Origin: Dictyostelium discoideum
Taxonomy: Eukaryota
Assembly (NCBI GenBank): GCA_000004695.1
Contig: CM000155.2
Location: forward strand, 3,168,001-3,232,000
DNA length: 64,000 nt
Direction of reading: 5' to 3'
Part shown: positions 4,296 through 8,525 of the stretch, piece by piece
Position numbering within the stretch: position 1 is the stretch's first letter
Layout: every line of letters starts with the position of its first letter
Notes under the pieces: generated by a model
What the model saw: only the letters and a program-made list of their open reading frames with translations
The model's database searches: none
Told to the model about the DNA's origin: nothing
Translations under genes and position numbers: made by a program

Positions 4296-4935
4296 TTTTT
4301 TTTTTTTTTTTTTTTTTTTTTTCAAATTAATAACCTCATCTCAATTTGGAATGTTCTAGTTTTATTTAATTTTATTTTAGTAATATTTTTATAGAGCCAG
4401 TTGTTTTTTTTGTCAGCAAATAAAAAGTAAATCAGCTATTTTTTTTTGATAAAAATATCTGAGCCTTAAAATAGTTTGGGTTAAACTTGGACAATTCAAT
4501 AAATTGAAATATTTCCATAAAAATCCATACTCTGGTATTGTAGTTTTAGGACCATCAATATAACAATTATATTTAGTTTAGTAAGAGGTATAATATTATT
4601 TATTATTTACCATTAATTATTTCTGTGTTCAAGGGTCACAAAAGTATATACAAATTATCAAAAGTATTACTTTTGATTAAAACATCTTTTTTGTCCAAAC
4701 TTTTTTCTAAATTTTTTTTTATTTTATCGTCTGGTTCGTGATTGATGTTGATGACATATTTGAATTGTTTTTTTTTTATTTGATTTTTATCCACAATTTC
4801 GCTTATTTTTTGTAGGCATTTGTGTTGCTTAATATTTGTGGTGTTGTTTGTAATTTTCATCTTGTTTTCTTTCTATTATTTTATTTTACTTTAAAAAGTT
4901 AAAAATCTGGAAATTTTCTGATAAACTTGAGTTCC

Positions 4936-4970
<35 letters not shown>

Positions 4971-4990
4971 TTTTTTTTTTTTTTTATTTA
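4296..4990 (-). mobile_element. Short internally deleted TRE5-like non-LTR retrotransposon copy (copy A): 5' UTR fragment, ORF1 N-terminal ~65 codons, 3' region, oligo(A)
   Basis: Minus-strand ORF 4636-4860 (MKITNNTTNIKQHKCLQKISEIVDKNQIKKKQFKYVININHEPDDKIKKNLEKSLDKKDVLIKSN) aligns with the N-terminus of ORF1 of the full-length copy (LDKISEAIYHTQIELKQYKFMINIPDEISNNLKAELEIHLQGDDKIIISKN). The upstream segment 4861-4935 matches the 5' UTR of copies B, C and D (ttaaaaatctggaaattttctgat...cttgagttccc). A poly-T run at 4296-4322 is an A tail on the - strand. Confidence 0.5.
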
Positions 4991-5606
4991 TAGAAAGTAC
5001 TGAGTGAATTATTTTATTTTTTGAGATGTTTAGGAAGTGCTATTGCGTGAAGAGGTGAGTTCCATTGTCTGCTAAATTGTAATAGCTTTAGCGAGATTAA
5101 TGAGTCTAATTTATTTTATTCTTCTGGCCGTTGCTTTGATTTGATTCTTAATTTTTTGTTGTCTATGAATTATTATTTTTTTTTCATCGTGAATCAGTTT
5201 GTTTCTTTTGTACCAAATTTTTTCGAATATGATAGCTATTAAATTGGCTATTAGTGCAATTTGTAGATGGTTTAAAATCTTCACATTCCAGGTGTGAGTG
5301 GTGTGTCCACACTTAGTTAGGGTGTAGTTGAAGATTTCTTGTGTGTTTTTGATGTGGGCTTTGCAGTTGAAGAATATGTGTTCTGAAGTCTCATCTTCCC
5401 CAAACTGTTGGCATGGCATGTTGTATATTTTTGGTAGTGCTTTCAGTGTGTATCTCCATAATAAATCTCTACCTTTCATGTTTATTATTTTTTTAATTTC
5501 TTTAAATGGAAGGTGTTTGCTATTAATGTTGGTCATTATTTCTTTTTGGCCATGAATTTTTTTTTTTTTTTTTGAATTTTTGGCCATGAATTGGAATACG
5601 ACGTTT
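4991..5606 (-). mobile_element. 5'-truncated TRE5-like fragment: C-terminal 158 codons of ORF2 plus 3' UTR, ending ~20 bp upstream of tRNA-His
   Basis: Minus ORF 5111-5587 (...KGRDLLWRYTLKALPKIYNMPCQQFGEDETSEHIFFNCKAHIKNTQEIF...) is homologous to the zinc-finger C-terminus of the full-length ORF2 (KGRDLAWRYLLKALPKHHGENCHSCKEEESSMHIFFECKSIKQNIDSIY). A T-run at 4936-4985 on the + strand is an A tail on the - strand. Confidence 0.55.
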
Positions 5607-5626
5607 TTACTAAAATATCAAAATTC

Positions 5627-5697
5627 GCCGTGATAGTATAGTGGTAGTACATCAGATTGTGGCTCTGTTGACCCTGGTTCGATTCCAGGTCGCGGCA
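5627..5697 (+). tRNA. tRNA-His (anticodon GTG)
   Basis: Cloverleaf: acceptor GCCGTGA/TCGCGGC (7 bp, one G-U), D-stem GTAT/GTAC, anticodon stem with loop TTGTGGC (anticodon GTG), T-arm CCTGG-TTCGATT-CCAGG, discriminator A, followed by a T-run terminator at 5698. Near-identical to canonical eukaryotic tRNA-His (GCCGTGAT.GTATAGTGGT.AGTAC...TTGTGGC...GGTTCGA.TCC). Confidence 0.85.
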
Positions 5698-5728
5698 CTT
5701 TTTTTTGGCAGAAACCAAAATAGATCAA

Positions 5729-5741
5729 GTGTTCGATTCTC
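5729..5741 (+). promoter_or_regulatory. External B-box-like element downstream of tRNA-His (gtgTTCGATTCtc)
   Basis: Matches the B-box consensus GGTTCGAATCC about 30 nt past the tRNA 3' end. Extra downstream B boxes are a known feature of Dictyostelium tRNA genes. Confidence 0.35.
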
Positions 5742-6290
5742 AGAGGAATGTGCCAAGAAGTGAAATTCACTCACTTTTAAAAAAGGTTCAAATAAACTGA
5801 AATATTAAAATAAACTTTTTTCAAAAGATCCTAAAAAATTTAAATGCCAAATGATTTCCATAAAACAAATAATTCATGTAAAAACATAATAGATATGGAA
5901 CTCTTTAATGATGACAAAATTCAAGACTCAATATCAGACTGCAACATTATTCTCAAAAAATGGTATAAATATGCAACCATGACTTCAAAAATAAAGTAAT
6001 AAACTTTAAACTATCACCAAGATACTCACTTTCAATTTGTTAATTCATCATACAAATTAAAAATATTGAAAATCAAATTATCAACTAATACTGTATACCA
6101 AATAGAGTAATTGTGGGTCAATTAATTTAAGCGATAGCTCCAAAATACTATTTTATTATTGAAACATTTCCCAATAATCCAATAAATCTAAATAAACAAA
6201 ATAAACAATTAATATTTGTGAAAATACGAATCTAGCAAATAATTGATTAATTAAAAAAAGCAAAGTAAATTGTATTCCAAAATTAGTGTT

Positions 6291-6424
6291 TTTAAATCTT
6301 ATCCTTCGACCAATTCATCTAATAATATAATCTTTTGAGTAATATTAATATTTCTTGGTCTGATCAAGTACCATGATTTGTATTGTATATTATTAGATGA
6401 ATTGGTCGAAGGATATGATTTAAA
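6291..6424. repeat. Hairpin: 39-bp inverted-repeat arms (1 mismatch) with a ~56-bp spacer
   Basis: Left arm tttaaatcttatccttcgaccaattcatctaataatata (6291-6329); right arm tatattattagatgaattggtcgaaggatatgatttaaa (6386-6424), the reverse complement with one mismatch. Confidence 0.7.
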
Positions 6425-6469
6425 AACGATGATTCGATTCCACAACATGAAGAGCACTTTTCATTAATA

Positions 6470-6920
6470 TTTTGCCTTTAATAAGTAAAAAAATGGTAAC
6501 TTTTTTTTTGAATTGGATAACGCAATTATTAGTTGCTTCTCCTTGAGATGCTAGATCTCATTTTATTTGTAGTAGTTTTTTTACAGGGTCTCTAAAAGAG
6601 GGGTTAGTTTACTTTTTTTTTTTTTTTTTTTTTTTTGTTTCAAATTTTGAATTGTATTATTACTTTTGATTAAAACATCTTTTTTGTCCAAACTTTTTTC
6701 TAAATTTTTTTTTATTTTATCGTCTGGTTCGTGATTGATGTTGATGACATATTTGAATTGTTTTTTTTATTTGAGTTTTATCCACAATTTCGCTTATTTT
6801 TTGTAGGCGTTTGTGTTGCTTAAAATTTGTGGTGTTATTTATAATTTTCATCTTATTTTCTTCTATTTTACTTTAAAAAGTTAAAAATCTGGAAATTTTC
6901 TGATTAACTTGAGTTCCTAT

Positions 6921-6952
<32 letters not shown>

Positions 6953-7030
6953 TCTTTTTATATGAAAAATGAAATAATCAAAAAAAGAGATTGTAGTTGT
7001 TTGTTTTTTTAAAAAAAAAAAAAAAAATCG
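6470..7030 (-). mobile_element. Short internally deleted TRE5-like copy (copy B): 5' module, A tract, 5' UTR, ORF1 N-terminal fragment, internal A tract, 3' module, oligo(A)
   Basis: Same module order and breakpoint (tacttttgattaaaacatc) as copy C. The 3' module ggataacgcaattattagttgcttctccttgagatgctagatctcattttatt recurs at 6520, 7855 and 7970. The 5' module ttaagtctttttatatgaaaaatgaaataatcaaa is at 6951. Confidence 0.5.
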
Positions 7031-7253
7031 TACCATACCATCCAAAAATCTCAACTTTTGTAATAATGGCGAATAATTAAGCGACATAAATAAATTAATA
7101 TATAAAGTTTTTATCCCTGGTAAAATACAAATATAGAAATAGATCTGTAACTGAAAAGACGTTAACAAATACAAGATTCTTACTTTATTCTCAGAAATTT
7201 TACCAACAGTTTCTTTATTAAAATTAGTTTTAGTATAAATAGTAAATAAAATA

Positions 7254-7453
7254 AAAATTAATTCATTGTTGTTTTATTCCAAATTGTGCACAAACATAAC
7301 TTATAAGTAAAGCTTTTTTATATATAATATTATATATATCTCTATATTATATATAATAATATATATTATATATATTATATATAATAAAGTTTTACTTATA
7401 AGTTTTGTTTGTACACAATTTGGAATAAAACAACAATGAATTAATTTTTATTT
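7254..7453. repeat. ~200-bp near-perfect palindrome (foldback): ~58-bp arms around an AT/TA-rich ~78-bp core
   Basis: Left arm aaaattaattcattgttgttttattccaaattgtgcacaaacataacttataagtaaa; right arm tttacttataagttttgtttgtacacaatttggaataaaacaacaatgaattaattttt. This is the reverse complement with 2 mismatches. Confidence 0.7.
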
Positions 7454-7829
7454 ATTATTAATTATTTATTATTAATTATTTCTGTGTGTTCAAGGGTTAC
7501 ACAAGTATATAAGGTATATACAAATTATCAAAAGTATATCATAGGAATTGGAATACGACGTTCATTACAAGCTTGTTAGCTTTATAAATATATATAATTA
7601 ATAATTATATAATTGAATAATATTTTGTTATCTTTATTTAATATTAATTTATATTTATAATATTCAATATTGTTTATAAAATTTTCTCTAGTATTTATAT
7701 TATTTATAAGGAGTTGACAGTATTATTATTATAATTATTTTTATATTATTTAAATGTGTGTCAACTATTATTAGTAATGTAATATGCATATTTAATATCT
7801 ATTAATTTTATTTTATTTTATTTTTTTTG

Positions 7830-8057
7830 AATTGGATAATGCAATTATTATTTACTTCTCCTTGAGATGCTAGATCTCATTTTATTTTATTTATCTATTA
7901 ATTTTATATTTTTTTTTTTTGAACAGGGAATAACAACTATTAATTTTTTTTTTTTTTTAATTGGATAACGCAATTATTATTTGCTTCTCCTTGAGATGCT
8001 AGATCTCATTTTATTTTATTTTATTTTTTTTTTACAGTGTCTCTAAAAGAGGGTTGG

Positions 8058-8106
<49 letters not shown>

Positions 8107-8398
8107 TTTCCAATTTTGAATTGTATTATTACTTTTGATTAAAACATCTTTTTTGTCCAAACTTTTTTCTAAATCTTTTTTTATTTTATCGTCTGGTTCG
8201 TGATTGATGTTTATGACGTATTTGAATTGTTTTTTTTTTAATTGAGTTTTATCCACAATTTCGCTTATTTTTTGTAGGCATTTGTGTTGCTTAATATTTG
8301 TGGGGTTGTTTGTGATTTTCATTTTATTTTCTTTCTATTTTTTTTATTTTTCTTTAAAAAGTTAAAAATCTGGAAATTTTCTGATTAACTTGAGTTCC

Positions 8399-8437
<39 letters not shown>

Positions 8438-8525
8438 TCTTTTTTATATGAAAAATGAAATAATCAAAAAAAGAGATTGTTGTTGTTGTTTGTTTTTTTT
8501 CGATCTGATTATTTTTTGCTTTTTT
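7830..8525 (-). mobile_element. Short internally deleted TRE5-like copy (copy C)
   Basis: Minus ORF 8059-8322 is an ORF1 N-terminal fragment (MKITNNPTNIKQHKCLQKISEIVDKTQLKKKQFKYVININHEPDDKIKKDLEKSLDKKDVLIKSN). It is flanked by the same 5' UTR (8330-8400), A tract (8402-8436), 5' module (8437-8520) and 3' module (7855-7905 and 7970-8066) as copy B. Confidence 0.5.

Follow-up and report, generated by a model that had tools for sequence, protein, structure and literature searches.

RESULTS

Retroelement pieces lie head-to-head with two tRNA genes

We analyzed a 64,000-nucleotide window of AT-rich, Dictyostelium-type DNA (Dictyostelium discoideum, contig CM000155.2), in which one short segment occurs three times, in copies that we call A, B, and C. 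In the original prediction, these copies were short TRE5-like derivatives that all break at one internal point and carry two different 3' ends. Our results indicate, with a probability of about 0.85, that all three are pieces of the known retrotransposon TRE5-A, an element without long terminal repeats (a non-LTR element), and that they lie in a nest of retroelements that target tRNA genes.

An Rfam scan returned two tRNAs and nothing else, and ARAGORN called the same two genes on the plus strand. The first, tRNA-His(GTG) at 5627-5698 (Rfam, 65 bits), is the target gene of its cluster. The second, tRNA-Asn(GTT) at 14147-14221, is the target of serial insertions by a TRE5-B-like element, copy C, and a stub of the TRE5-A C-module. 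Every TRE5-like piece in 4296-14096 is on the minus strand, head-to-head with the tRNA genes, which is the orientation published for TRE5 elements (PMC5911963).

The shared segment is the TRE5-A B-module

The shared segment lies at 4665-4987, 6658-6959, and 8127-8449, with 92-94% identity by BLAST. Its core of ~270 nt (4665-4939, 6658-6921, and 8127-8402) holds an ATG followed by ~65 codons, on the minus strand in all three cases. When the 74-amino-acid (aa) open reading frame (ORF) of copy A was used in a protein search, it matched six short Dictyostelium proteins and no others, and the loci of such proteins proved decisive. For comparison, we used four related loci from two other Dictyostelium assemblies, namely, L001 (D. 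cf. discoideum), L002, L003, and L004. At L004, the short ORF is the N-terminus of a 444-aa TRE5-A ORF1, which bears out the prediction that each copy retains ~65 ORF1 codons and that the resemblance to ORF1 is homology, not chance similarity.

The segment occupies two different positions in these elements. At L003, a 444-aa ORF1 and a 1047-aa ORF2 with an RVT_1 domain are followed by an A-tract and then by the same 270-nt segment, after which come 'aataatacaattcaaaattcgaaac', A20, a ~105-nt module ending in 'gcgttatccaattc', and oligo(A). At L004, the segment is found at the 5' end of the element, behind at least seven tandem repeats of 199 bp, and runs directly into the 444-aa ORF1, which starts with MKITNNTTNIKQHKCLQKISEIVDK. 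The published architecture of TRE5-A is AB-ORF1/ORF2-BC, with a B-module of 290 bp that sets the start of ORF1 and has a second copy in the 3' untranslated region (UTR) (PMC3159450). Since the architecture of L003 and L004 matches this description, the shared segment is the TRE5-A B-module, which carries the ORF1 start and the first 65 codons and is naturally present twice, in the 5' UTR and in the 3' UTR. According to the same study, the 3' stem-loop of the C-module is by experiment indispensable for retrotransposition, and the variant TRE5-A.2 carries a 72-bp BC deletion (PMC3159450); this deletion is present at L004. A TRE5-C origin of the short elements, suggested by short homologues only, was rejected, as L003 and L004 show the B-modules to be those of TRE5-A (full-length and A.2, respectively).

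The supposed breakpoint is the normal B-to-C junction

An alignment of nine sequences around the proposed breakpoint revealed three states. The 5' B-modules (L004 and L001) continue with '...agtaataatacattcaaaattctcacagac' into ORF1, beyond the point at which copy A diverges. What follows in the 3' B-modules of the full-length elements in L001, L002, and L003, as well as in those of copies B and C, is '...agtaataatacaattcaaaatt(c/t/g)gaaac', A(n), and 'gtaaac...', the last of which belongs to the C-module. Only copy A drops out of the alignment, after '...agtaata', its divergence following '...aatcaaaagtaata'. Copies B and C thus run 21 nt past the end of copy A, and these nucleotides are still homologous to ORF1 (the 5' B-module reads 'aataatacattcaaaattctcacagac...' here). 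The L003 junction ('cgaaac', A20, C-module, and oligo(A)) equals that of copies B and C base for base, L001 and L002 have the same one, and the AX4 proteins P0002 and P0005 reveal further B-to-C junction copies elsewhere.

Because the junction is present in the full-length elements L001, L002, and L003, it is not a lineage-specific deletion: the "shared deletion breakpoint" marks the place where the B- and C-modules canonically meet in the TRE5-A 3' UTR. A novel deletion derivative with a private breakpoint was rejected on these grounds, together with the end of copy A 21 nt earlier. The tail that had been described for copies B and C was found as claimed ('aataatacaattcaaaatt(t/g)gaaac', an A-tract, a ~105-nt module with the end 'gcgttatccaatt(c)', and oligo(A)), and at the position named as the breakpoint neither copy is broken. 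The breakpoints therefore differ on alignment, and the claim that they are shared fails. It follows that a B-module directly followed by a C-module is the normal TRE5-A 3' UTR and is unusable as evidence for a propagating deletion lineage.

Copies B and C are TRE5-A without the part between its two B-modules

Copy B (6501-7010, minus strand) is an A'-B-C unit of TRE5-A that comprises oligo(A) (A9, 6501-6509), a C-module (6510-6612), an A-tract, a B-module (6637-6921), a second A-tract, and a partial A-module (6950-7010). It belongs to an older subfamily, and its ORF is frameshifted. Copy C (7945-8704, minus strand) is an A-A'-B-C unit with oligo(A) (A14, 7945-7958), a C-module (7959-8062), an A-tract, a B-module (8107-8402), a further A-tract, and A-modules at 8435-8704. 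It had been under-called, since the A-modules, one full (199 bp) and one partial, reach 8704. Its target-site duplication (TSD), ATTAATAGTTG, is intact, with 11 bp at 7934-7944 and at 8706-8716. Copy C is 96.7% identical to the A+B+ORF1 part of L004, including the 199-bp tandem A units, and 92-96% identical to the ORF2-B-C part of L002 and L003. Next to it lies the C-module stub of a 5'-truncated TRE5-A (7821-7893, minus strand), which consists of the last ~65 nt of the C-module and oligo(A), shares 95% identity with the corresponding module of copy C, and is flanked by AAATTAATAG. The C-modules of copy B, copy C, and the stub, whose fold is kept, form the same two hairpins as that of L003 (-8.3 to -11.3 kcal/mol; z of -1.5 to -3.1).

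Both units are TRE5-A minus everything between its two B-modules. The prediction of a non-autonomous derivative thus stands for copies B and C, which are ORF-less and retain A- and C-modules and oligo(A), with an intact TSD in copy C; it does not stand for copy A, which is part of an ORF2-B fragment. TRE5-A insertions are expected ~44-54 bp upstream of tRNA genes, oppositely oriented and flanked by a TSD. Copy C fits this indirectly, as it shares a target, AAATTAATAGTTG, located 38-49 bp upstream of tRNA-Asn. An LTR-like repeat ends (7059) 48 bp away from copy B's 5' end, a distance close to the usual spacing between TRE5-A and a tRNA gene; no tRNA gene or remnant was detectable at 7011-7060.

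Copy A is the end of a truncated TRE5-A inside an LTR-like repeat

Copy A (4668-4939, minus strand; ATG at 4860, 65 ORF1 codons) is the 3' B-module of a 5'-truncated TRE5-A. By BLAST to L003 and L002, it is contiguous with an A-tract and ~560 nt of the 3' end of TRE5-A ORF2 (4940-5587, minus strand; ORF at 5111-5587), and 4668-5558 shares 95% identity with L003 3242-4196, where the ORF2 3' end and B-module of a full-length TRE5-A lie. Copy A, taken for a short derivative before, is therefore the ORF2-B part of a truncated element. It is without the last 21 nt of the B-module, the C-module, poly(A), and a TSD. We refer to the ORF2 part (X) and copy A (A) together as fragment X-A (4668-5587). 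At its 5' truncation, fragment X-A joins an LTR-like repeat (5587/5588), 39 bp from tRNA-His.

The sequence that follows copy A does differ from that following copies B and C, as had been predicted, but it is not a TRE5 3' end: it is the LTR-like repeat continuing beyond the insertion. The distal part of this repeat (4594-4667, minus strand) aligns to 7453-7537 and to three L001 copies, with a similarity that fades below ~4594. Its first 25 nt (5588-5612, minus strand) lie on the other side of fragment X-A and start 14 bp upstream of tRNA-His. In the original prediction, the region after copy A reappears at 7478-7545, fused to ggaattggaatacgacgtt; this recurrence is real and represents the uninterrupted repeat within 7059-7569. 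Specifically, the sequence recurs at 7453-7537 beside GAATTGGAATACGACGTT, an 18-mer with exactly two occurrences (5588-5605 and 7545-7562) vs 0.03 expected by chance. We considered GAATTGGAATACGACGTT as a TSD or as a mark of segmental duplication and rejected both, since the LTR-like repeat has this 18-mer as its conserved 5' end. A TRE5-B-type 3' UTR was likewise rejected as the identity of the region after copy A, since only 4325-4370 resembles a TRE5-B-like terminus and the part beside copy A is LTR.

The repeat has the ends TGTAATGAACGTCG...ATTATTACA. Its complete solo copy in the window (7059-7569, minus strand; TGTAATGAACG...ATTATTACA) aligned end to end with L001 4063-4455, 4470-4866, and 5017-5407. 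In addition to this copy and the three in L001, there is one in L004. Four other copies have TG..CA ends, and three of the four are 8-14 bp from tRNA genes; the spacing is 14 bp at tRNA-His, 13 bp at an L001 tRNA-Phe, and 8 bp at an L001 tRNA-Ile. At L004, a TRE5-A.2 element sits at the same position of the LTR with a 14-bp TSD, TTCCTATGGAATAC. The "alternative 3' end" is thus an LTR-like, tRNA-associated repeat that is split by a TRE5-A fragment, and template switching drops out as its source. Within 7059-7569, there is an internal palindrome (7249-7453; 82-nt arms, 95% complementary, 41-nt spacer), apparently an inverted duplication internal to the repeat, which the L001 copies do not have.

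The junctions of fragment X-A are unusual. A normal insertion at the tRNA-His LTR would have the TSD TTCCTATGATATAC; fragment X-A has none, and the seven LTR nucleotides 'ctatgat' are absent between the LTR parts that flank it. The junction of LTR and B-module, atcaaaagta-t-tacttttgat (4648-4687), forms a perfect 10-nt palindrome with a TAT direct repeat at its borders, and a palindrome of at least that length was seen at only 0.14% of random window junctions. Both palindrome arms are native to their source sequences.

At the opposite end of fragment X-A (5543-5592, minus strand), we found a micro-insertion of 'TTC' and A15-16 (5559-5576) flanked by a 16-nt direct repeat, AATTCATGGCCAAAAA. The 16-nt duplication is not part of the canonical TRE5-A sequence. 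The micro-insertion looks like an extremely 5'-truncated TRE5-A of which only poly(A) and the final 3 nt of the C-module are left, flanked by a 16-bp TSD. As this TSD spans the LTR/TRE5-A junction, the micro-insertion is younger than fragment X-A. The TSD lies 35-51 bp upstream of tRNA-His.

A TRE5-B-like element, copy C, and the C-module stub share one target

The full-length copy of the original prediction spans 8717-14096 (minus strand), with ORF2 at 8971-12405, ORF1 at 12508-13872, and the TSD AAATTAATAGTTGA. Its ORF1 and ORF2 are 26.7% and 43.2% identical to the TRE5-A ORFs, and BLAST found no matches to the B- or C-module at 8731-8970, so that the element is without a 3' B- or C-module. 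For TRE5-B, an ORF1 ~25% identical to that of TRE5-A and the lack of a 3' B- or C-module have been published (PMC3159450). The element matches this description, and copies A, B, and C do not descend from it.

This TRE5-B-like element, copy C, and the C-module stub have a common target, AAATTAATAG(TTGA), 38-49 bp upstream of tRNA-Asn. Therefore, the three integrated serially at one site, as has been reported for TRE5-A (PMC9012585). Older copies were pushed away from the tRNA genes by later insertions at the same target sites.

Other features of the region

TRE3-type material is found downstream of both tRNA genes (5700-6000 and 14300-19300). After tRNA-His, it is a short remnant resembling an ORF2 C-terminus, and after tRNA-Asn, it is a long element (ORFs 15333-17300 and 17654-19150) in which Exo_endo_phos and RVT_1 domains are encoded. 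An inverted repeat (49-nt arms, 92% complementary, 56-nt spacer) is located at 6281-6434, in the interval from tRNA-His to copy B.

On the far side of copy A, a host ORF (1374-4262) encodes 962 aa with much coiled-coil and poly-N/Q sequence; protein searches with it, meant to lead to the orthologous locus in other strains, returned no homologue and no exact-match record. Beside its stop codon, 4296-4370 contains a poly(A) tract (a T-run on the plus strand) with 'ctagaacattccaaattgagatgaggttatt' before it. The TRE5-B-like element has a similar 3' terminus (8731-8775). The alignment of 4325-4370 with that terminus scored 49, with a mean of 29.7 and a maximum of 47 for 500 shuffles. The tract may be a TRE5-B-type 3' stub.

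DISCUSSION

Origin of the A-B-C units

Copies B and C were likely formed by a homology-driven exchange between two B-modules. Such an exchange could take place at the DNA level, like the formation of solo LTRs, or through a switch of the reverse transcriptase from the 3' to the 5' B-module during target-primed reverse transcription. That B-B exchange happens in TRE5-A follows from L001, where the order is dORF2-B-ORF1-ORF2-B-C and one B-module is common to two units. At L001 5440-10364, this single B-module links the 3' end of a truncated ORF2 with a degenerate ORF1-ORF2-B-C unit. There, the 5' B-module is 99.3% identical to the 3' one, whereas both are only ~91% identical to D. discoideum copies. 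Copies B and C offer too few sites that tell a 5' from a 3' B-module for a crossover to be mapped in them.

We compared two A-B-C units and eight B-modules by their identities. With full-length and A.2 elements, copy C shares 98.5-99.3% identity in the B-module, and the B-module of copy B is 96.9% identical to copy A and 95.0% identical to copy C. No lineage specific to A-B-C units emerged from these identities. B-B collapse appears to be recurrent, from contemporary longer elements, rather than the result of the spread of one A-B-C master.

Alternative explanations

One alternative concerns the 3' end of copy A. The 5'-truncated TRE5-A inserted 39-46 bp upstream of tRNA-His, into an LTR-like repeat that already lay there, and its 3' end may have been lost either through a later deletion aided by the 10-nt palindrome and the TAT repeat or through an aberrantly resolved integration. 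We regard the second route, in which the end was lost at integration with a 7-bp target deletion instead of a TSD, as possible but less probable than not. In this scenario, the TRE5-A endonuclease would cut at the canonical LTR site, and the resected target end ('...AAAAGTAT') would prime inside the B-module RNA on 3 nt (TAT/AUA); alternatively, a cDNA fragment would be captured by end joining. In agreement with this, the fragment lies exactly in the footprint of the canonical 14-bp TSD of L004, both TSD copies and 7 nt of the LTR are missing, and there is microhomology at both junctions. However, the C-module, which copy A lacks, is experimentally essential for retrotransposition, and a 10-nt palindrome with a flanking TAT repeat fits a hairpin-assisted deletion after insertion better.

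For the A-B-C units, an origin other than B-B exchange would be mobilization as such: at least young units like copy C would owe their presence to transcription from the A-module and to retrotransposition in trans, as SINE-like (short interspersed nuclear element-like) minimal TRE5-A. Copy C does have one or more full A-modules of 199 bp, a C-module with an intact stem-loop, oligo(A), an 11-bp TSD, and a B-module ~99% identical to those of full-length and A.2 elements, and the AX4 proteins point to more copies of the junction elsewhere. The same features are equally expected from the in-place B-B collapse of a full-length or A.2 insertion, however, and no A-B-C clade was seen. Moreover, tagged TRE5-A elements without ORF1 lose 99.5% of their retrotransposition activity (PMC3159450), which argues against an efficient spread of A-B-C units. 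We therefore consider this origin unlikely, and slightly more so in the specific form in which the B leader and the C-module hairpin alone suffice for mobilization in trans. If true, it would contradict the reported strong cis requirement for ORF1.

Finally, the original prediction of a single trans-mobilized derivative with a unique breakpoint, whose 3' end was changed in copy A by template switching, is very improbable: although copies B and C are ORF-less with A- and C-modules and oligo(A), copy C has a clean TSD, and TRE5-A.2 shows that trans-mobilization exists in the family (PMC3159450), the junction occurs in full-length elements, copy A stops 21 nt before the others and is contiguous with ORF2, the sequence after it is a repeat with its own termini that resumes across the insertion, and copy C groups with full-length and A.2 elements and copy B with copy A, so that, in this small sample, no propagating deletion lineage is seen.

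Several points weigh against our assignment of the copies to TRE5-A and B-B exchange. The family assignment rests on architecture, the published description, and loci from two other Dictyostelium assemblies. With only two A-B-C units and eight B-modules compared, the claim that there is no A-B-C lineage is statistically weak. Copy C, with its full A-module, intact hairpin and TSD, and ~99% identity to the active lineage, could itself be retrotransposed A-B-C RNA. There is no tRNA gene close to copy B, the TSD of which is degenerate (12/14 matches), and both routes to the loss of the 3' end of copy A fit.

Altogether, the locus is explained by known biology, and nothing new is needed. It is a textbook example of serial, position-specific stacking of retroelements at tRNA genes, with three families (TRE5-A, the TRE5-B-like element, and the LTR-like repeat) on two targets. 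The 3'-truncated copy with its palindromic junction and the 'TTC' plus poly(A) micro-insertion are atypical TRE5-A outcomes that may interest researchers of target-primed reverse transcription, although they open no new question.

Comparison with known elements

The pieces resemble TRE5-A.1/DRE most closely. The A-, B-, and C-modules, the B-to-C junction, the C-module hairpins, and oligo(A) all match; the TSD and the position and orientation upstream of tRNA genes match as well, indirectly so for copy C and less clearly for copy B and fragment X-A. The B-modules are 95-99% identical to those of elements in other assemblies. They differ from it in that copies B and C are without ORF1 past codon 65, ORF2, and one B-module, and copy A is without the 5' two-thirds and the 3'-terminal ~190 nt.

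TRE5-A.2 (AB-ORF1-BC, trans-mobilized), exemplified by L004, is likewise a non-autonomous, internally deleted TRE5-A. It keeps the whole ORF1 and has the 72-bp BC deletion, whereas copies B and C lack the body of ORF1 and have an undeleted BC junction. Copies B and C, with 65 ORF1 codons only, are therefore not members of TRE5-A.2, the true state of which is seen at L004. A TRE5-A.3 form, to which the short copies had also been likened, was not mentioned in the literature found by our search.

In being a composite terminal unit to which a repeat-flanked element has collapsed, copies B and C are also comparable to solo LTRs and to the 'BC.ABC' distal-repeat form of DRE that was reportedly described by Marschalek et al. 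in 1992. As in that form, the A-B-C units are distal to newer insertions at the same tRNA gene. In contrast to elements that leave solo LTRs, TRE5-A is a non-LTR element in which the repeated part is the B-module only, and the collapse is possible at either the DNA or the RNA/cDNA level.

The LTR-like repeat, in turn, can be compared with the solo LTRs of DGLT-A (H3R), which lie upstream of tRNA genes in a window of 13-33 bp, with an LTR of 265 bp for Dd_DGLT-A (PMC5006619). Compared by this published description, the repeat differs in length (~390 bp, or 511 bp with the palindrome, vs 265 bp), and the DGLT-A primer-binding site, TGGCGACATCGTCTTTC, was not found. Its termini and position agree with DGLT-A/H3R: it has TG..CA ends, it sits, oriented either way, upstream of tRNA genes at distances of 8-14 bp (the tRNA-Ile copy, at 8 bp, is just outside the published window), and all copies seen are solo.

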